From Nitrosopumilus sp. (GTDB lineage: Archaea > Thermoproteota > Nitrososphaeria > Nitrososphaerales > Nitrosopumilaceae): DNA of 64,000 nt. The position numbers and the translations under genes are program-made. The notes beneath the pieces were generated by a model. The model saw nothing but the letters and a program-made list of their open reading frames with translations, searched no databases and was not told where the DNA came from. This document shows positions 10,177-50,624 of the stretch, piece after piece. Each line of letters begins with the position of its first letter. Position 1 is the stretch's first letter. The DNA is taken from the NCBI GenBank assembly GCA_965197525.1, contig OZ240211.1, positions 768,001-832,000 of the forward strand. Reading direction: 5' to 3'.

Positions 10177-10292
10177 GTGTTTACCTTATCACATTGTCTT
10201 GACGGGGTTTTATAGGTTTATGTAAAAAATTGATTTTAGACACATACAAATAGTACAAAAACGGGCGCTGTCAAGTTATAGAGACCTTATTT

Positions 10293-11531
10293 ATGAGGAT
10301 AGGCGTACATAAATGCCCCAAAATCATAGAATATTTGTTGAAGGCAGTAAAGTCAATAGCACAAAAATATACGCCAAACTCTGACCTAATGGATATGATG
10401 GCCACATTCACAGAAATGGTTAACCGTTGCATCAAGATAGGGTTAAAAGAAGACACACACAATATGAAAAGGCTATCATGTCTATGCTATCACGAATTGA
10501 GAGACTATGACGTTTTATCGTCATACAAACTAAATGCAATATCAAGGGCTGCTGGCATATTGGCAAACAGAAAACAGTCAATAAAACGTGGTGTTAAGGT
10601 TAGATACCCAAAGGTAACAAAGCCGTTTATCACTAATTGTTACGGTATAAAACACAATGGTGCACTACTCACAATCCCATACAAGAGTAGAAATCCAATC
10701 AACATCTTGTTAAACCCGCATACCCAAAAAATCCTGTCAAATCCTGCCTTGACAGTACGCTCGTTTTCATTGACTGCCTTTAGCATCAATCTTTGCGTTT
10801 CCAAGGAAACTGAAAGGATAAAATGCACCAAGACAGTGGGAATCGATAGAAATTTGAGGAATGTTACATGTGGCAATGAGGAGCAAGTAACATTTTACAA
10901 GACAAACAAACTGCTATCCATAAAAGAGAACACCATGCACGCCAGAGCCGGATTCCACAGAAATGATCGCAGAAAGAAAGGTCAATTCTGGAAGATAAAA
11001 CAGCGAAGAATGACCAATAGAACAAAACAATACATACACAGAATATCAAAAGATATTGTGGATAATGCCGTCAAAGAAAAGGCTGTAATCGTTCTAGAAA
11101 ACCTAAAAGGAATTAAAAAACTCTACAAAAAAGGAAATGGTCAAGGCAACAAATACAGGCGCAGATTAAACGGATGGCAATTCTACGAGTTACAACGCCA
11201 AATAGAATACAAAGCCCAATGGGTCGGGCTCCCGCCAGTCGAATATGTAGACCCAAAAAACACGAGCACGCAGTGTCCAAGATGCGGAAAGAAACTCCAA
11301 GAGGACATGCAACACAGTCGTAAAATGTCGTGTAATAATTGCGGATTGTACATGGACAGAGACATTGTAGCTGCCATGAACATATCGCGCAAACCGTCCC
11401 CTAGGTTTAGGGATAGTAGAGATGACATAGGTGAAGCGCAGTCCGGTGTTTTTGAACCGGTGATGATGGAACCCTGCATACCGGTAATCCAGATAGTCGA
11501 TATGTCAAAGTCGAGTGATAGGAGGATGTAA
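10293..11531 (+). CDS. tnpB: TnpB RNA-guided endonuclease (IS200/IS605/IS1341-type)
   Basis: RuvC motifs GIDRN (D), VLENLKGI (E) and MDRDIVAAMNI (D); Zn finger CPRC...CNNC. Real start is probably TTG at about 10338. Confidence 0.93.
   Translation: MRIGVHKCPKIIEYLLKAVKSIAQKYTPNSDLMDMMATFTEMVNRCIKIGLKEDTHNMKRLSCLCYHELRDYDVLSSYKLNAISRAAGILANRKQSIKRGVKVRYPKVTKPFITNCYGIKHNGALLTIPYKSRNPINILLNPHTQKILSNPALTVRSFSLTAFSINLCVSKETERIKCTKTVGIDRNLRNVTCGNEEQVTFYKTNKLLSIKENTMHARAGFHRNDRRKKGQFWKIKQRRMTNRTKQYIHRISKDIVDNAVKEKAVIVLENLKGIKKLYKKGNGQGNKYRRRLNGWQFYELQRQIEYKAQWVGLPPVEYVDPKNTSTQCPRCGKKLQEDMQHSRKMSCNNCGLYMDRDIVAAMNISRKPSPRFRDSRDDIGEAQSGVFEPVMMEPCIPVIQIVDMSKSSDRRM
11394..11525 (+). ncRNA. Predicted TnpB omegaRNA scaffold (E1); boundaries approximate
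   Basis: Overlaps the 3' end of tnpB; conserved in all five elements with covarying hairpins (here CCGGT-gtttttga-ACCGG). Confidence 0.55.
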
Positions 11532-11551
11532 CTTGTTAAATCAACAGGTAC

Positions 11552-12808
11552 CTATGACTTCACAGAACCGTTAACAGTGACTAGAACAGAGTCAGGCTCA
11601 GATAATGGTAAAAAATTATCAAGAGACTTCCATACAAAGGTCTCAATTGTGTATGTTCCAGAGGTTTTAGGAATCCAGGACTGCGATACGTCAATACGCT
11701 GCTCAGGTGGAACTTTACTTTGGAACCACGATAAAAACTCAATGGTCCCATCAGAGGCCTTTACTTGAAAGATGTAGGCAAATGGTTGTGATGCAACGAT
11801 GTCAGGGTTTGTTACAGAGCCAACCATCTGAAAGGGAGTATCCACAGATAAAGGTACGGTTATCGGTTCACCAAAACTATTAGACATTACAACAGGAGAG
11901 CTCTCAAGTTTGTTAAGATACAATGATTCGACTCTGATTGATGATTCAACAGATAAAGTATTAGACGAGTAAACGTTGGAGTCAGGTAAAGTGTGATCAT
12001 GATATCTTGCATATAGATGATCACCTGATTGCACATAGAGTCTATTGCCATTAGATGGCAGATGTTCAGACAGAGATACGGCAACAGTAAAAGAGCCAGA
12101 ATCAGCGGTTGTCTCAACTGCGCGTCCTATGATTCCTGCAACATCAGAATCTGTGTACATATGCACCATAACGGTATCAGGGAATTGAGGATTCAGATTC
12201 ATGTCAGGGTCAATGACACGAACTGTGATAGAATCAGCATTACTGCCATCTAAAAAAAAGACACCGTCATCATTATCATTATTATTATTATGATTATCCA
12301 TATTGCCATGCAAAAGTTCAATGATGCCAGTATTCCAAGCAACATTTACAGTATGTAAGAGCAAAACATCGTCTGCGAATTCAAATGATATGGTTATGCC
12401 TGAATCAGGCTCAACTTCTAGATAACCATTAGTTGGTCCGGTGCCACCGGTACGAGGTGTCGTATCATCAACACCATCACCATCAACATCATATGCAAAT
12501 CCAGTCAGGGTAACTTCTGCTGTAAAGATTCCAGAGTTTGCATCAGTTTCAACAAACCGGTAAGGCATAAGAGAGTGATCAGATGTTGCAATCTTGATTG
12601 GATGTGTGTCAGTATCCCCAATGGTATCAATCAGATATCGGTCAGTATTCCAGCTAGGTGATACGATCGTCATGTAGATTTTATCAGTCCAAGTATAGAT
12701 TGATTTGTCAGTAAGGATAGGAGCATAGGGATTGTAGTAATCAGGTATAGGCTCACCCTCATCTCCGAAGGCAGTAAAGAGAATAATCAGCGGAAGAGAC
12801 AAAAACAC
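11552..12808 (-). CDS. Secreted thaumarchaeal hypothetical protein (Ig-like/S-layer-like domains)
   Basis: Signal peptide; VETDANSGIFTAEV and VIDPDMNLNP motifs; C-terminal WIPKTSGTYTIETFVW. The last codons (GSVKS-stop) come from the E1 right TIR. Confidence 0.75.
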   Translation of the reverse strand: MFLSLPLIILFTAFGDEGEPIPDYYNPYAPILTDKSIYTWTDKIYMTIVSPSWNTDRYLIDTIGDTDTHPIKIATSDHSLMPYRFVETDANSGIFTAEVTLTGFAYDVDGDGVDDTTPRTGGTGPTNGYLEVEPDSGITISFEFADDVLLLHTVNVAWNTGIIELLHGNMDNHNNNNDNDDGVFFLDGSNADSITVRVIDPDMNLNPQFPDTVMVHMYTDSDVAGIIGRAVETTADSGSFTVAVSLSEHLPSNGNRLYVQSGDHLYARYHDHTLPDSNVYSSNTLSVESSIRVESLYLNKLESSPVVMSNSFGEPITVPLSVDTPFQMVGSVTNPDIVASQPFAYIFQVKASDGTIEFLSWFQSKVPPEQRIDVSQSWIPKTSGTYTIETFVWKSLDNFLPLSEPDSVLVTVNGSVKS

Positions 12809-12889: not shown

Positions 12890-13143
12890 GGTTCTGTTAA
12901 CCTATCGGAGCTTGGTTCATAATCTTATCGGTGTTAACTGTCGGGGCTTTTGGGCACAATCACTTCTGCTATTAAAGATATAAAGTAAAGGGTTCTGTTA
13001 ACTTATTGAGGAGTAATTCTTGCTGTTAACTGTCGAGAGGTCAAACCGTACCAAACCTAACACAAAATCCTGATTTTATTAAATGTAGAATATTTCTAGA
13101 TTCTGTTAAGTTACCGTCGCCTGATTCTTCCTGTTAACTATCG
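12890..13143 (+). repeat. Six direct copies of a TIR-like motif (CTGTTAACYRTCG) arranged as three pairs
   Basis: Motif cores at about 12894, 12931, 12995, 13023, 13103 and 13131; pairs recur about every 101-108 bp. Confidence 0.7.
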
Positions 13144-13158
13144 TCACCCGTCCTAAAA

Positions 13159-13633
13159 GGAATAAGAAAGTTGTACAAAAAAAAAGGAAATGGCCATGAT
13201 GCAGGCAGGATTTTGATGGAATGGTTTTTAATCCATAGGAAATAAATACAGACGCAGATTAAACAGCTGGCAATTCTACGAGCTACAACACCAAATACAA
13301 TACAAAGCCCAATGGGCAGGACTATCAGTCGAATTTATAGATCAAAAACACGAGCTCGCAATGTCCAAAATGCGGAAAGAAACTCCAATAGGACATCAAT
13401 ACAAACGAAAAATATCGTGTAATAATTGGGGATTGTTCGTGGACATAGATGTTATAGATGACATGAACATATCACACAAACTGTTCCCTAGGTTTAGGGA
13501 TAGTAGAGGTGACGTATATGAAGCGCAGTCTGGCACTTTGGTGCCGGTAATGTTGGAACCTGGTATAACACCACCAGTAATCCAAATAGTCGATATGTCA
13601 AAGTCGTGCAATCGTGGTTATGTCCCTCGATAA
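13159..13633 (+). pseudogene. tnpB: 3' remnant of tnpB including the omegaRNA region
   Basis: GIRKLYKK...RRRLNSWQFYELQHQIQYKAQWAGL through IQIVDMSKS, broken by frameshifts. Confidence 0.85.
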
Positions 13634-13650
13634 CACAACAGAACCGGAAA

Positions 13651-28724: not shown

Positions 28725-30003
28725 TCTCTCGTCTAAGTAATGATTCTGTCTCCCTTATTGATTTACCAAGAATGTCAGATATTCTCTTTAGATCATCAAA
28801 CTCTATCTTCAAGCTAACGTTTCCCTTAAAAAAAGAACGCTTGTAATTTACATGAAATGTTTGATCATTTAAGGTCAGAGAGGCATTATGAGAAGAACGA
28901 GAGACGATAAATCGTGTTGAATCAGATACGCGAATTCCCAATGTTCCAGTCTCAGATATCAAAGTGTCGACTATTCCATCGATGGTATCACCAGTACAGA
29001 TAACAGATACAAGATTTGTAGGTCTTCCTTTTTTTGTAATTCCGTGATAGATGGAGATGTCTAGTGCGCCTCGGCTCATGACTTTTTCAACAAGGTTTCC
29101 CAGGATCTCACCTGAGACGTCATCAAGATTTGTTTCAAGAATCTTCACAGAATCGGTTTTAAGAGCATCATCGCAGTTGTGGTTATTGTTAGAGGTATTG
29201 TGATTGTCTTCTTTTTCATATTTGTTATTGTTATCAGCTCCAACTACAGATCCACGAATAACTTTCAAAACGTTTGCAAAGCTATCAAAATCATTCTGTC
29301 CAGCGCCATACCCAACTGAATCAACTTGCATTAATGGGCAATACCTTGCAGATTCATTTACCAGGTTTACTAGTATACATGCACCAGTAGGAGTTGTAAG
29401 CTCTTGATCCGCATCGCTACCTTGAATAATTAAATCAGAGTTCTTAAAGATCTCAAGAATTGCACTTGCGGGATTAGACATCGTGCCATGGGAAAAAGTT
29501 ACAGATCCACTGCCAACTGAAACAGGAAGGCAGAGAATCCTTTCATCAAATAGATCTAAATCTTCTAACGCAATTGTAACGCCTACGATATCAATGAGTG
29601 TATCAATGCTTGATGCTTCGTGAAGATGAACAGACTCCCTTGCAACACCGTGAATCTTTGATTCAGAGGAGATCAGAGTATCAATGCAAGAGTCTGCAAA
29701 AATTTGTGCCTTCTGGGACAGTCCGAGTTCCAAGACAGAGTGAGCAATCGCTTCTTTGATTGCAGTACCGCTACGTTGACTAACAGAATCTTCGACTAGT
29801 CCTAATGCTAGTTGGAGAGAACTAATACCATGTTTTTGAATCCTCTCAAGAGCAATATGTGATATTGTAGATTCCGGAAGGAATTGAGCCGATCTTTTGA
29901 CTCCTTGGATAACTTTGTCTTTGTCAGCACCTAGATCGACTAGGGAACACAATAACATATCACCTGACACTCCTGCAATCTGAGGATCAATAACAACGAC
30001 CAT
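28690..30003 (-). CDS. larC: Nickel insertase LarC
   Basis: GVSGDMLL, VHLHEASSIDTLIDIVG, ELTTPTGA, ETNLDDVSGE and ETGTLGIR motifs. Confidence 0.92.
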   Translation of the reverse strand: MVVVIDPQIAGVSGDMLLCSLVDLGADKDKVIQGVKRSAQFLPESTISHIALERIQKHGISSLQLALGLVEDSVSQRSGTAIKEAIAHSVLELGLSQKAQIFADSCIDTLISSESKIHGVARESVHLHEASSIDTLIDIVGVTIALEDLDLFDERILCLPVSVGSGSVTFSHGTMSNPASAILEIFKNSDLIIQGSDADQELTTPTGACILVNLVNESARYCPLMQVDSVGYGAGQNDFDSFANVLKVIRGSVVGADNNNKYEKEDNHNTSNNNHNCDDALKTDSVKILETNLDDVSGEILGNLVEKVMSRGALDISIYHGITKKGRPTNLVSVICTGDTIDGIVDTLISETGTLGIRVSDSTRFIVSRSSHNASLTLNDQTFHVNYKRSFFKGNVSLKIEFDDLKRISDILGKSIRETESLLRREIEKLESSNDCP

Positions 30004-31894: not shown

Positions 31895-32009
31895 CACCAA
31901 TGCTGCAAGATGAAATCTGACAAATTTTTGTATTTACTTGTACGCAGATTCAAGTACAGTCAGTAGAGACAACATCAAGCACGGGTTCTGTGAAGTTATC
32001 GAGGGTTAA

Positions 32010-32143
32010 CCCCTATAAACTTGACTTTGACATATCGACTATTCGGATTACCAATGGTGTGCCGGGTTCCGTCATCGCCGGCTCAAAAGTGCCGGACTGC
32101 GCTTCATCTATGTCATCTCTACTACCCCTAAACCTAGGGGGCA
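32010..32143 (-). ncRNA. Predicted TnpB omegaRNA scaffold (E2); boundaries approximate
   Basis: Hairpins CCCCT-aggttt-AGGGG and CCGGC-acttttga-GCCGG on the minus strand. Confidence 0.55.
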
Positions 32144-33200
32144 GCTTGCGTGATATGTTCATGGCAGCGATAATATCCCTGTCCATAAACAAACCGCAAT
32201 TATTACACGACATTTTACGATGTTGTTGCATGTCCTCTTGGAGTCTCTTTCCGCATTTCGGACACTGCGTGCTCGTGTTTCTTGGGTCTACTGTCTCGAC
32301 TGGAGGCAACCCGACCCATTGGGCTTTGTATTCTATTTGGCGTTGTAACTCGTAGAATTGCCACCCGTTCAATCTACGTCTGTACTTGTTACCTTGACTG
32401 TTTCCTTTTCGGTACAATTTTCTTATTCCTTTCAGGTTTTCCATGACGATTGCAGTCTTGTTTTTGACTGCGTTGTATACCATATCCTTTGAGATTCTGT
32501 GGATGTACTGCTTTGTTCTATTGCTCATTCGTCTCTGTCTTTGTTTCCAGAATTGACCTTTCTTCCTGCGATCATTTCTGTGGAATCCTGCCCTGGCGTG
32601 TATTGTGTTCTCCTTTATGGATAACAGTTTATTTGTCTTGTAGACTGTCACCTCTTCCTCGTTCCCACACGTCACATTTCTTAGGTTTCTGTCTATTCCC
32701 ATTTTCTTGGTGCACTCTATCTCTTGTACTGTTTTTGAAACACAAAGACTGATGTTCAGAGCAGTCAATGAAAACGAGCGCACCGTCAAGGCGGGATCAG
32801 ATAGGATTTTTTGGGTGTGAACGTTGAGTAAAATGTTGATTGGGTTATGTTTCTTGTATGGGATTGTGAGTAGTGCACCGCTGTGTCGTATACCGTAACA
32901 GTTTGTCATAAAGGGATTTTTGACTATTGGGTCTCTTATTCTGACACCTCGTTTGATTGACTGTTTTCTGTTTGATAACATGCCTGCAGCTCGTGATATT
33001 GCATTTAGTTTGTATGAAGACAGGATGTCATAATTACGTAATTCATGATAACATAACATGGACAACCTCTTCATATTGTGAGTGTCTTCTTTCAATCCTG
33101 TCTTGATGCAATGATTGACCATCTTTGTGAATATAGCCATCATATCCATTAGATCAGAGTTCGGCGTATATTTCTGTGATATTGACTTTATCGCTTTCAA
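32013..33200 (-). CDS. tnpB: TnpB RNA-guided endonuclease
   Basis: RuvC D/E/D motifs (GIDRN, MENLKG, MDRDII) and Zn finger intact; near-identical to the 49072 copy. Confidence 0.93.
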   Translation of the reverse strand: MKAIKSISQKYTPNSDLMDMMAIFTKMVNHCIKTGLKEDTHNMKRLSMLCYHELRNYDILSSYKLNAISRAAGMLSNRKQSIKRGVRIRDPIVKNPFMTNCYGIRHSGALLTIPYKKHNPINILLNVHTQKILSDPALTVRSFSLTALNISLCVSKTVQEIECTKKMGIDRNLRNVTCGNEEEVTVYKTNKLLSIKENTIHARAGFHRNDRRKKGQFWKQRQRRMSNRTKQYIHRISKDMVYNAVKNKTAIVMENLKGIRKLYRKGNSQGNKYRRRLNGWQFYELQRQIEYKAQWVGLPPVETVDPRNTSTQCPKCGKRLQEDMQQHRKMSCNNCGLFMDRDIIAAMNISRKLPPRFRGSRDDIDEAQSGTFEPAMTEPGTPLVIRIVDMSKSSL

Positions 33201-33316
33201 CGAATATCTTACGGTTTAGAGGTTTATACAATTTAGGGATTAACAGATAACCCTCGATAACTTCACAGAACCCAAGCACGTAAATGATATATAACATATA
33301 TTGAATAGTTTTATAG

Positions 33317-34984: not shown

Positions 34985-35314
34985 TTAGAGTTTTTCAATA
35001 GCAAAGTCGGCAATGGTATTTCTTTTTGGTGTGATAGAAATAAAATACACCTTGTCTGCGCGCTCTATTGCACTTACTTTTTTAAATGATGTATCAGAGA
35101 CGTCAAACTCATAGATGCCTTGATCCAATGACCCTGAGGCATAAAGCATTAGATACGTATCACCAGTTGCGGCGCCTAGTGGAATGAAAGACATTACATA
35201 GCCTTTGTAAGAGTTTATAGGCATGGTATTCTTCATTGGCGGTGCAGCCGATGTCATATACATAAGAAGATCTTCTATGGTATTGAATTCTTCATACTCT
35301 ATATGCATAAACAC
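34985..35314 (-). CDS. Hypothetical protein
   Basis: 109-aa ORF with normal composition. Confidence 0.65.
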   Translation of the reverse strand: MFMHIEYEEFNTIEDLLMYMTSAAPPMKNTMPINSYKGYVMSFIPLGAATGDTYLMLYASGSLDQGIYEFDVSDTSFKKVSAIERADKVYFISITPKRNTIADFAIEKL

Positions 35315-35350
35315 TGTAAAAAGAGTCAGTATAATAATCTTATATAATCA

Positions 35351-35738
35351 GGTTCTGTGAAGTTATAGAGACCTGAAACATGAATGAATGAATATCGTTA
35401 ATTATATCATAATTATGTTGAATCCAACAAACACGAACACGCAATGTCCAGGATGCGGAAAGATATTCCAAGAGGACATGCAATACAGATGTAAAATATC
35501 GTGTACTAATTGTGGATTGTTCATGAACAGCAACAACATTGCCATGAACACATCTCACAAGCTGTCCCCTAGGTTTAGGGATAGTAGAGGTGACATACAT
35601 GAAGCGCAGTCTGGCACTTTTGAGCTGGCAATGTCGGAACCTAGTACACCGGTAATCCGAATAGTCGATATGTCAAAGTCAAGTAATAGGAGAAACACAC
35701 CTTGGTAAATCAACGGGTACCTATAACTTCACAGAACC
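35351..35738 (+). mobile_element. 388-bp miniature element E4 (TIRs plus tnpB 3' end/omegaRNA region) with perfect 8-bp TSD
   Basis: TIRs identical for 18 bp (21/24); TATAATCA duplicated at 35343-35350 and 35739-35746; the interior keeps only the Zn-finger/tail part of tnpB. Confidence 0.93.
35561..35692 (+). ncRNA. Predicted omegaRNA scaffold in mini-element E4
   Basis: Same conserved hairpins as in E1-E3. Confidence 0.5.
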
Positions 35739-35902
35739 TATAATCAATGAGAATCGTCCTTTTATTCTATAAAGAGTGCCAAGGTAAACAAAAAGACAAG
35801 AATTACCATACCGAGAGGCACAAGTCATGATGTTTTTATAATCATGAAAGCAGACAATGCATGAATTGTGGTATTAGATGTAGAACGCTTATGCATGTGT
35901 GA

Positions 35903-36415
35903 TTACAGTGAAGAGAATATATCTTCAAGGGCTAAGGCAGGTGCGTCTAATAAGTGTGGGTGATAGTCATCTACGAGACGATCCACTGTACTTCTATCCA
36001 CGATACCGTAGGATATCTTTGTGTTTGTCAGACGTCTCCACACTACATTGTCTCTGACTAGGTGTGAAAGAGATACAGACACGGTAGAAGGTGATCTGTT
36101 AGAAAGTTTTGTTATTTGATCAAATGTCAAACCCTCTGGATTTTGCATAAGAGCAAGAATCAAACGTCTATGAGTATTACGTCTAAGATATCTGCATAGA
36201 GTAGATTCTACATCTGAAAGACCAAGGGGATAGTAATGGGTTCGACGCTGGAATCGTTCTACTGTTACAATGCCTAATTTTTCAATCATGCGTAGATGAT
36301 TACTCAAAGTGCCGTTGGCCATTCCTGTACGGCGCATGATCTCCCGATACTGTATTCCAGGATTGCCACGAATTACACATAGTATATTTTGGCGTTTATC
36401 TGACATACTAGTCAT
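35903..36415 (-). CDS. Tandem winged-HTH transcriptional regulator
   Basis: NPGIQYREIMRRTGMANGTLSNHL and a second HTH (LTFDQITKLSNRSPSTVSVSLSHL). Confidence 0.85.
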   Translation of the reverse strand: MTSMSDKRQNILCVIRGNPGIQYREIMRRTGMANGTLSNHLRMIEKLGIVTVERFQRRTHYYPLGLSDVESTLCRYLRRNTHRRLILALMQNPEGLTFDQITKLSNRSPSTVSVSLSHLVRDNVVWRRLTNTKISYGIVDRSTVDRLVDDYHPHLLDAPALALEDIFSSL

Positions 36416-48753: not shown

Positions 48754-48917
48754 TGATTTAGCAATAAATTTAGAGCATTATAACTTTTTGAATGCGATGA
48801 TTTCATTACAATTTTAATAGCAGTTCTAAGATCAGCATGATTAGACAAAAATGATCAAATTGACTCTGTTACCATTTGGAATCAATTCATCGTATCACCT
48901 TGTTGTTTTTAGCTCCA

Positions 48918-48967
48918 GATAACCCGACAGAACCATAAAATTCACATCCCCATAACGTTACAGAACC
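48918..48967 (-). repeat. Two orphan TIR-like sites (GGTTCTGT...TTAT) next to E3
   Basis: Plus strand GATAACCCGACAGAACC and CATAACGTTACAGAACC, 33 bp apart. Confidence 0.6.
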
Positions 48968-49071
48968 GTATATCCAATAAGGTAATTAATGAAAAAGAGG
49001 GTTCTGTGAAGTTATCGAGGGTTATCTGTTAATCCCTAAATTGTATAAACCTCTAAACCGTAAGATATTCG

Positions 49072-50265
49072 TTGAAAGCGATAAAGTCATTATCACAGAA
49101 ATATACGCCGAACTCTGATCTAATGGATATGATGGCTATATTCACAAAGATGGTCAATCATTGCATCAAGACAGGGTTGAAAGAAGACACTCACAATATG
49201 AAGAGGTTGTCCATGTTATGTTATCATGAATTACGTAATTATGACATCCTGTCTTCATACAAACTAAATGCAATATCACGAGCTGCAGGCATGTTATCAA
49301 ACAGAAAACAGTCAATCAAACGAGGTGTCAGAATAAGAGACCCAATAGTCAAAAATCCCTTTATGACAAACTGTTACGGCATAAAACACAACGGTGCACT
49401 ATTAACAATCCCATACAAGAAACATAACCCAATCAACATTTTACTCAACGATCACACCCAAAAAATCCTATCTGATCCCGCCTTGACGGTGCGCTCGTTT
49501 TCATTGACTGCTCTGAACATCAGTCTTTGTGTTTCAAAAACAGTACAAGAGATAGAGTGCACCAAGAAAATGGGAATAGACAGAAACCTAAGAAATGTGA
49601 CGTGTGGGAACGAGAAAGAGGTGACAGTCTACAAGACAAACAAACTGTTATCCATAAAGGAGAACACAATACACGCTAGGGCAGGATTCCACAGAAATGA
49701 TCGCAGAAAGAAAGGGCAATTCTGGAAACAAAGACAGAGACGAATGAGCAATAGAACAAAGCGGTACATCCACAGAATCTCAAAGGATATGGTATACAAC
49801 GCAGTCAAAAACAAGACTGCAATCGTCATGGAAAACCTGAAAGGAATAAGAAAATTGTACCGAAAAGGAAACAGTCAAGGTAACAAGTACAGGCGTAGAT
49901 TGAACGGGTGGCAATTCTACGAGTTACAACGCCAAATAGAATACAAAGCCCAATGGGTCGGGTTGCCTCCAGTCGAGACAGTAGACCCAAGAAACACGAG
50001 CACGCAGTGTCCGAAATGCGGAAAGAGACTCCAAGAGGACATGCAACAACATCGTAAAATGTCGTGTAATAATTGCGGTTTGTTTATGGACAGGGATATT
50101 ATCGCTGCCATGAACATATCACGCAAGCTGCCCCCTAGGTTTAGGGGTAGTAGAGATGACATAGATGAAGCGCAGTCCGGCACTTTTGAGCAGGCGATGA
50201 CGGAACCCGGCACACCATTGGTAATCCGAATAGTCGATATGTCAAAGTCAAGTTATAGGGGTTAA
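49072..50265 (+). CDS. tnpB: TnpB RNA-guided endonuclease
   Basis: RuvC D/E/D motifs and Zn finger intact; TATAAA at 49044-49049, about 25 bp upstream of the TTG start. Confidence 0.93.
   Translation: MKAIKSLSQKYTPNSDLMDMMAIFTKMVNHCIKTGLKEDTHNMKRLSMLCYHELRNYDILSSYKLNAISRAAGMLSNRKQSIKRGVRIRDPIVKNPFMTNCYGIKHNGALLTIPYKKHNPINILLNDHTQKILSDPALTVRSFSLTALNISLCVSKTVQEIECTKKMGIDRNLRNVTCGNEKEVTVYKTNKLLSIKENTIHARAGFHRNDRRKKGQFWKQRQRRMSNRTKRYIHRISKDMVYNAVKNKTAIVMENLKGIRKLYRKGNSQGNKYRRRLNGWQFYELQRQIEYKAQWVGLPPVETVDPRNTSTQCPKCGKRLQEDMQQHRKMSCNNCGLFMDRDIIAAMNISRKLPPRFRGSRDDIDEAQSGTFEQAMTEPGTPLVIRIVDMSKSSYRG
50128..50260 (+). ncRNA. Predicted TnpB omegaRNA scaffold (E3); boundaries approximate
   Basis: Conserved hairpins overlapping the tnpB tail. 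Confidence 0.55.
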
Positions 50266-50624
50266 CCCTCGATAACTTCACAGAACCAAAAAGAGACATC
50301 ATAAACATGCAAAGATTGTGTAGGTATGATCCAACTGGCAAAGGAACGCATTGTTTTTGTATAGATATTGACGCACAAAAAGGAATCAAAAAATGCTGTA
50401 AATGCAATCAATGGAACGTTCAGGGGAATGACTGGACTAGTAATGAAGATTTTAGATAAGTAAATGCACGAGATCACAGGAATGGAATAATCACGAACTA
50501 ATTCTCTGAATTGATACTAGGAGCTTTGTTTATGACATGTACGTATAACCGATAGGAGTACTGAAAACCCTCTCTTCATTCTATCTAATGGTTTTTATCA
50601 GGGATTCTTTGAATTTTGGATTAC

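Follow-up and report, generated by a model that had tools for sequence, protein, structure and literature searches.

Can a transposable element that has lost its nuclease gene still carry a guide RNA for the nucleases of its relatives? The question is raised by E4, a 388-bp element at positions 35351–35738 of a 64,000-nt stretch of Nitrosopumilus sp. DNA (the whole of this stretch is referred to here as the window, and positions are those of the window unless marked as genome positions). The genome is represented by one 2.21-Mb contig with 39.6% G+C. Our best explanation, which we hold to be reasonably probable when taken as a whole, including the use of TnpB in trans and homing, is that E4 is a miniature, non-autonomous offshoot of a tnpB-only family with IS6-like ends.

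Anatomy of E4

Read directly from the sequence, the context of E4 runs ...cTTA TATAATCA, then the element from GGTTCTGTGAAGTTATAG to CTATAACTTCACAGAACC, then TATAATCA atga... (Table 1). An earlier note on this DNA had described terminal inverted repeats (TIRs) and a perfect target-site duplication, and both are present, with 18 of 18 positions matching in the outer TIRs (22 of 24 overall) and the 8-bp TATAATCA on both sides. The 18-nt repeat was found at ten sites in the window with no more than three mismatches, compared with 0.12 expected from shuffled sequences. E4 has the attributes by which MITEs are recognized, namely TIRs, a duplication, small size without a transposase gene and several copies of shared structure. 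Its only reading frame is a decaying TnpB tail. The alignment of E4 with the full-length element E3 covers E3 positions 988–1260; approximately 77% of tnpB is absent and the last 23% is kept, close to the loss of about 75% that had been estimated previously. In this remnant, where tnpB homology begins at approximately 35424, the Zn ribbon is kept and the RuvC-III DRD motif is lost. The AT-rich segment that had been noticed ahead of the remnant is also there, and it is specific to the E4 subfamily.

Table 1. Features of E4 and its immediate flanks (window positions)
Feature	Position	Strand	Basis or remark
TAM-like motif TTA	35340–35342	+	Directly 5' of left duplication copy; W-T-R at -11 to -9
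Left target-site duplication copy TATAATCA, 8 bp	35343–35350	.	Direct reading and TIR-pair scan
Left TIR, IS6-like GGTTCTGT terminus	35351–35374	+	18/18 perfect, 22/24 overall
AT-rich segment, candidate archaeal promoter	35375–35423	+	In E4, M548, M516, M870 and M2108 only; full-length elements lack it
TnpB C-terminus remnant, 106 codons open	35388–35708	+	PF07282 6e-4
Predicted omegaRNA hairpin P1	35561–35585	+	RNAalifold consensus
Predicted omegaRNA multibranch domain, closing UGACAUA/UAUGUCA	35587–35680	+	Consensus fold
Near-invariant block GGTAATCC.AATAGTCGATATGTCAAAGTC	35652–35683	+	Nearly all of 49 right ends, 208-bp MITEs included
Predicted terminal hairpin, tnpB tail with inner right TIR	35679–35732	+	MFE folds of 36 distinct tails; E4's own fold
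Right TIR	35715–35738	-	Direct reading and TIR-pair scan
Predicted guide-encoding DNA, right duplication copy (35739–35746) and flank	35739–35758	+	Inferred from TAM geometry

The Parental Family of tnpB Elements

Three full-length elements in the window are bounded by the E4-type repeat (E1, 10264–11569; E2, 31984–33272; E3, 49000–50287). These parents are approximately 1.29 kb long with tnpB as the sole gene, and each encodes solely a TnpB protein of 395–412 aa (NF040570, 2.4e-35; PF07282, 4.5e-21). In its RuvC/Zn-ribbon part, this protein is a homologue of TnpB and Cas12f proteins with solved structures. Genome-wide, approximately 35 full-length tnpB elements fall into several subfamilies, and an open frame of at least 385 aa is retained in 32 of the 35. 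The closest public relatives with the same TnpB are in MAGs labelled Nitrosopumilus sp., and a relative with 96–98% identity is represented in a sponge metatranscriptome library. The ends of family members are TIRs of 22–29 bp beginning with GGTTCTGT, and none is of the IS200/IS605 type.

Duplications of 8 bp with at most one mismatch flank 28 of 45 copies, and the copies without matching duplications are explained by recombination between copies. A case in point comes from a related Nitrosopumilus MAG (OZ245003.1), in which two inverted tnpB copies (L010 and L012) approximately 126 kb apart have the reciprocal 8-bp flanks TAGAAACT/TTATGTTA and TTATGTTA/TAGAAACT; such flanks correspond to an inversion by recombination between copies and thereby account for many copies that lack matching duplications. 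The scan for TIRs additionally brought up long head-to-tail arrays with a unit of approximately 725 bp (marker GGTACTGTTACGTCAGTCTC) at many sites in the genome, for example at genome positions 168–173 kb and 316–319 kb, which are probably giant repetitive surface-protein genes.

E4 Transposed as a Short Unit, and Short Derivatives Arose Repeatedly

A second element of 388 bp (M548, genome 548812–549199) is 96.4% identical to E4 over the full length, and three more copies (M516, M870, and M2108; 378, 378, and 358 bp, respectively) share E4's junction and its AT-rich left part of approximately 50 nt. Because a nearly identical copy exists together with three others that have the same junction, E4 transposed as a short unit, which is one of the two histories that the earlier note had allowed. 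A 344-bp MITE with its own duplication (L039) was found in another species.

In this genome there are at least 13 short tnpB-derived elements that originate from at least seven junctions, at E3 positions approximately 879 (E5), 910–913, 988–996 (the E4 group), 1088–1093, 1135, 1155, and approximately 1220. The right-end scaffold is present in every one of them, whereas the 5' part of tnpB is missing throughout; the bias in retention that the earlier note had noticed thus holds across the genome. E5 (approximately 12890–13645), for which the same bias had been proposed, indeed contains the 3' part of tnpB only. This right-anchored retention could partly reflect how deletions arise. No left-end promoter region is kept in M852 or M1385. 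The only short elements with TIRs and no scaffold are S338, which is transposase-derived, and S883, and neither derives from tnpB.

Several of the short elements have unusual structures. On the left side of E5, the 3' part of tnpB is preceded by three left-TIR-like sequences in succession (at 12890, 12991, and 13099), which suggests nested insertions or TIR capture. At genome positions 1394563–1396016 lies a TIR-bounded mosaic of 1,454 bp, with TTG on the left and GAAAAATA as its duplication. The left end of a tnpB element is combined in it with pieces of an IS1595-like gene and of the IS6-like insertion sequence (IS) described below, and with the scaffold of a tnpB element (its last 169 nt), the tnpB body having been lost. 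S883 (genome 883991–884841) is a single-copy element of 851 bp with GGTTCTGT-type TIRs of approximately 33 bp and the duplication TATTACTG, and its AT-rich cargo contains neither tnpB nor scaffold. Part of a short M1385/S418-type MITE occupies 48837–48967, and its solo TIR (48950–48967, minus strand) lies 32 bp upstream of the left end of E3.

The Predicted Guide-RNA Scaffold Is under Constraint in Gene-Less Elements

We aligned 49 right ends and scored covariation among the 43 distinct sequences. The RNAalifold consensus was constant whatever window was chosen and consists of hairpin P1 and a multibranch domain, with a structure of approximately 125 nt. Among the 43 distinct sequences, standard pairs occupy 97.7% of pair cells, compared with 23–39% when the partners are slid, and double compensatory changes occur in 10 of 31 pairs; the pair 1132–1148, for example, is UA in 25 sequences and CG in 15, and another is GC in 27, AU in 12, and UA in 2. 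Copies from other genomes behave alike, with 474 of 489 cells paired in 16 distinct copies and the same positions covarying. The structure had no match in Rfam 15 at an E value of 1 or less in a search of positions 30000–52000, which span E2, E3, and E4.

That the structured 3' region is kept in E4, as had been proposed from its sequence, is borne out by all 31 consensus pairs, which are intact; identity to the E3 scaffold is 91%, and E4's own MFE fold reproduces the structure. E4 therefore keeps what is predicted to be a complete omegaRNA scaffold, made up of P1, the multibranch domain, and a terminal hairpin in which the right TIR is embedded. The terminal hairpin is predicted in virtually every subfamily and is formed by the tail with the tnpB stop codon, which pairs with the inner right TIR, the arms covarying with TIR subtype; AGAACC, the approximately 6 nt at the element end, stays single-stranded beside it. 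Inside the multibranch domain, a stem-loop at 35609–35629 of E4 has an invariant loop. Apart from one bulge, the loop sequence ACUUUUGA is complementary to UCAAAGU of the invariant block (E3 1183–1190/1245–1251; E4 35616–35623/35675–35681), and a pseudoknot between the two is possible; both sides are invariant and covariation is consequently uninformative there.

Across MITE copies, substitutions in the remnant frame are even over codon positions, and the summed differences in the MITE lineage are 105 in the coding remnant versus 61 in the scaffold, which is of similar length. E4 and M548 differ at 14 positions, of which four lie in the stem at 35609–35629 and all four preserve pairing, and the stem variants CTAAC/GTTAG and CGTTC/GAATG occur in MITEs only. 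With a remnant that drifts free of codon bias, a more slowly changing scaffold, and compensatory stem changes, constraint on the predicted scaffold is evident within the gene-less lineage.

The same observations bear on whether the open frame itself is what was retained. If the 106 codons encoded a small protein with a Zn ribbon, which might for instance regulate TnpB or compete with it, retention would be explained without recourse to RNA, and it fits this proposal that E4 and M548 both have a frame uninterrupted as far as the native stop and that indels within the subfamily are mostly multiples of three. The even spread of substitutions among MITE copies and the loss of the catalytic DRD argue against it, however, and neither M1385 (208 bp) nor M2108 has such a frame, so we give it hardly any credence.

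A more serious alternative is that E4 is an inert decay product without RNA function, the 3' region of which was kept by shared ancestry or for sequences that the transposase needs in cis, such as sub-terminal sites or the right-end hairpin. Five MITEs descend from a single deletion event, and one of them, M2108, has a 14-nt deletion within a scaffold stem. The terminal hairpin is an inverted repeat at the DNA level and thus symmetric, the sense fold being the more stable in only 21 of 36 strand comparisons, in which G-U content was considered as well; its role might thus lie in protein binding or otherwise at the level of DNA. Expression data are compatible with inertness as well. One sponge metatranscriptome (X1) contains contigs 96–98% identical to the single-copy neighbors as well as contigs over the conserved 3' region of the family; these are assembled contigs of a multi-copy family, the start, end, strand, and copy of origin of which are not assignable, and they therefore cannot be ascribed to transcription of E4. 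A peak over the scaffold in X1 is mirrored in the DNA run and was set aside as evidence for expression. Nevertheless, a need for cis-acting DNA sequences would not lead one to expect a conserved region that extends approximately 100 nt beyond the hairpin and has RNA-type covariation including G-U pairs, nor MITE-specific stem variants that are compensatory, nor a scaffold that evolves more slowly than the adjoining remnant. At least seven independent junctions spare the scaffold, IS6-family elements are described as requiring short terminal repeats only (PMC7986276), and the flank motif described below follows scaffold orientation even in MITEs of 208–388 bp. We consequently regard inertness as unlikely, though the most plausible of the alternatives, and favor retention of the scaffold for its RNA.

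A One-Sided Motif Next to the Duplication Points to a Flank-Derived Guide

To locate the guide, we oriented the flanks of all copies by tnpB before counting motifs. Counted from the left end, positions -11 to -9 carry a W-T-R motif, of which the T (-10) and the R (-9) are found in all 28 duplication-bearing copies of this genome. In other genomes, the motif is present in 13 of 13 copies and its mirror in none of the 13. Overall, 31 of 45 copies have TTR, which has a genome frequency of 4.4%, and only 6 of 45 have the mirror on the right side. All five MITEs with intact duplications have TTR oriented as the scaffold is (TTA in E4). A palindromic target, TTR-N8-YAA, which unoriented flanks had suggested, was rejected, the motif being one-sided once flanks are oriented by tnpB.

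We infer that W-T-R is the TAM. In the empty site, it would immediately precede the duplication and right flank on the 5' side, the position that TnpB would require of a TAM if the guide were transcribed across the right end. The motif could also be a target preference of the mobilizing transposase; neither of the two autonomous IS6-like copies with duplications that were available for comparison has the motif in either orientation, and the transposase-derived MITE S338 has TTA. Because the motif beside the duplication is strand specific, the guide is more likely to consist of the duplication and the right flank than of an internal stretch.

The internal alternative places a fixed guide within the element itself, in the variable stretch that separates the conserved block from the right TIR, and supposes that E4 has a distinct, constant guide. 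Conservation does fall sharply after ...GTCAAAGTC, and the next 10–100 nt differ by subfamily, in the manner of a boundary between scaffold and guide. The variable stretch starts, however, at the tnpB stop codon, where coding constraint ends; it forms the 5' arm and loop of the hairpin with the inner TIR, covaries with TIR subtype, and ranges from 10 to 100 nt in length. Spacers of nine subfamilies gave no off-element match better than chance, and the oriented TAM-like motif beside the duplication suits a guide taken from the flank. We judge an internal guide to be quite improbable. The "guide seed" that the earlier note had distinguished from that of E1 is on this evidence probably nothing other than the hairpin arm and loop that pair with the inner TIR.

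A guide derived from the flank has consequences for what E4 could target. In the occupied site, ACC stands in place of the motif and breaks both of its fixed positions, so that E4 would not target itself. The predicted guide of E4 has no other match in the genome with three or fewer mismatches, and its first 18 nt have no match in IMG/VR. The flank guide of each copy would target solely that copy's own empty site, so that E4 is better described as a candidate selfish homing cassette than as a source of alternative guides. The proposal that MITEs supply alternative guides in trans to intact TnpB hence survives in part: the use of TnpB in trans remains the best reading, and the guides would not be "alternative" ones, because the flank motif points to the element's own empty site. 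A clean empty site was not found among relatives, in which the left flank is only approximately 75% identical and the sequence to the right of the site differs, and no joint skipping E4 is listed in the DNA run.

An IS6-Like Transposase Is the Most Likely Source of Mobility

The hallmarks of the IS6/IS26 family are an 8-bp direct repeat and short terminal repeats, and its recorded members include two MITEs and one element with a passenger, none with tnpB (PMC7986276). We found eight matches to the IS240-type DDE domain (PF13610) in the genome. One belongs to an intact IS6-like IS of 1,970 bp at genome positions 746475–748444, which has a TIR matching at 29 of 30 positions and starting GGTTCTGTG, an 8-bp duplication, and a transposase of 378 aa with extra N-terminal Zn fingers. 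This protein scores above the cut-off for PF13610 (1.2e-10), and its best NCBIfam match is the IS6 model NF033587, at 102.8 bits, below the 125-bit cut-off.

The tnpB subfamily represented by F1649 (genome 1649168–1650609) has the same first 18 nt of the TIR as this IS. The 171-bp MITE S338 (genome 338241–338411) has TIRs of the TnpB-element subtype around the 3' end of a gene for an IS6-like transposase, and this combination is a direct link between the tnpB elements and an IS6-like partner. An intact IS with exactly the TIR of E4 was not found in the genome, and four other genes with IS240-type domains have no convincing TIRs at their ends. From these sequence relationships, it is most likely that the tnpB elements and the MITEs owe their movement to an IS6-like DDE transposase that is supplied in trans from another locus of the genome.

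The IS240-type transposase is also part of a 4,126-bp unit at genome positions 1956395–1960520, which has the IS6-like TIRs and the duplication TTTAATAG and also holds extra ORF fragments, one of them resembling another DDE transposase. This unit is probably an IS with a nested insertion.

A Model for Homing of E4

These results can be combined into a model in which a DDE transposase from elsewhere in the genome would move full-length elements and MITEs alike. A transcript crossing the right end of E4 would carry the guide, composed of the 8-bp duplication and the right flank. As an alternative to a promoter of its own, E4 might depend on read-through transcripts that are processed by TnpB; the TnpB of ISDra2 reportedly processes its mRNA. 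TnpB from one of the approximately 32 intact sister copies would then load the E4 RNA in trans; this is probably the best reading for the source of the nuclease because so many full-length copies (32/35) keep the long open frame. The complex would cut loci without E4, that is TTA followed by TATAATCA and the flank (target TTA-TATAATCAATGAGAATCG), recombination with an occupied copy would restore or spread E4, and the occupied site would be protected by the TIR terminus ACC in place of the TAM. IS6-type transposition is replicative, and the benefit of homing is therefore less obvious than in IS605 elements.

The one-sided motif could have a different origin. The TnpB–omegaRNA complex or the scaffold-bearing end might join in target choice by the IS6-like DDE transposase, so that the oriented T-R (mostly TTR) motif would be imposed at integration instead of resulting from selection among insertions afterwards. 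We consider this unlikely. If it were the case, an RNA-guided nuclease would be coupled in a primitive way to a DDE transposase, and E4 and other gene-less MITEs would make use of both proteins in trans and form a library of homing guides that spreads.

Relation to Known Guide-RNA Elements

Guide-only cassettes have been published before. Stand-alone omegaRNAs (Altae-Tran et al. 2021), in the summary given in PMC10691335, are guide scaffolds without effector or transposase in genomes with intact effectors and are reported to be active in trans. E4 resembles them, as far as that summary goes, in being a mobilized scaffold without an effector in a genome with intact effectors. They are placed there in IS200/IS605-type contexts, whereas E4 has IS6-like TIRs, an 8-bp duplication, a visible tnpB remnant, and a putative activity in trans. 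PATEs (Meers et al., PMC10055086) derive from IS605 elements, contain no genes, and encode omegaRNAs. As in E4, they are minimal, non-autonomous elements with both ends and an omegaRNA, and the transposase and TnpB come from trans; they differ in having asymmetric hairpin ends and no duplication and in being moved by Y1 TnpA via single-stranded DNA, whereas the TIRs and 8-bp duplication of E4 point to a DDE enzyme. Membership of E4 in IS200/IS605 or among PATEs is ruled out by the symmetric TIRs and the 8-bp duplication. By analogy, E4 would work like a PATE or a stand-alone omegaRNA, yet it does not belong to the IS605 type.

Branches of TnpB associated with DDE transposases, and solo TnpBs with matching inverted repeats that are presumed to be mobilized in trans, are described in the main text of Altae-Tran et al. 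2023 (PMC10691335). The elements there share with ours a tnpB within inverted terminal repeats, its 3' end less than 250 bp from the transposon end (PMC10691335, main text). That main text names IS630 as the sole partner and no IS6-type transposase, and it describes no MITE derivatives, no TAM 5' of a duplication, and no hairpin in which a TIR is embedded. IS6/IS26 insertion sequences and MITEs (Varani et al. 2021, PMC7986276) share the 8-bp direct repeats and short terminal repeats; neither tnpB cargo nor an RNA scaffold is reported for them, and the transposase found here departs from the family in its length of 378 aa, its additional Zn fingers, and its score below the NCBIfam IS6 cut-off. 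Our family is like the ISDra2 TnpB–omegaRNA complex (8exa, 8h1j) in having a homologous RuvC/Zn-ribbon nuclease (E value 3e-7), a predicted RNA that overlaps the 3' end of tnpB, and a modelled 5' TAM with a guide derived from the flank. It is unlike ISDra2 in the sequence and structure of the RNA, which has no Rfam match, and in that the embedded end is a TIR and not an IS605 right end. E4 is set apart by the combination of IS6-like ends, the TIR embedded in the predicted RNA, the TAM-like motif on the 5' side of the 8-bp duplication, and the existence of MITE lineages whose scaffolds evolve by compensatory changes.

Published work on homing by TnpB rests on IS605 "peel-and-paste" elements, the excision of which recreates the target. 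The nuclease and predicted guide module described here instead rides on a transposon with TIRs and a duplication (DDE, probably replicative) in an ammonia-oxidizing archaeon. Gene-less derivatives that combine compensatory scaffold changes with the same flank motif provide comparative evidence of selection on guide-only cassettes, and the arrangement of TAM, 8-bp duplication, and flank is a testable geometry for OMEGA systems beyond IS605/IS607. A compact TnpB with a TAM-like motif of 3 nt may also be of interest to tool developers.

Genomic Neighborhood of E4

A minus-strand ORF of 109 aa (34985–35314) has E4 on its upstream side, approximately 36 bp from its start, the gap between them being 35315–35350. 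The duplication overlaps a TATA-like sequence, TTATATAA, that still adjoins this ORF, and the sequence further upstream is now the TIR of E4; the insertion may alter the promoter of the ORF. The other neighbor of E4 encodes a winged-HTH regulator (35903–36415, minus strand).
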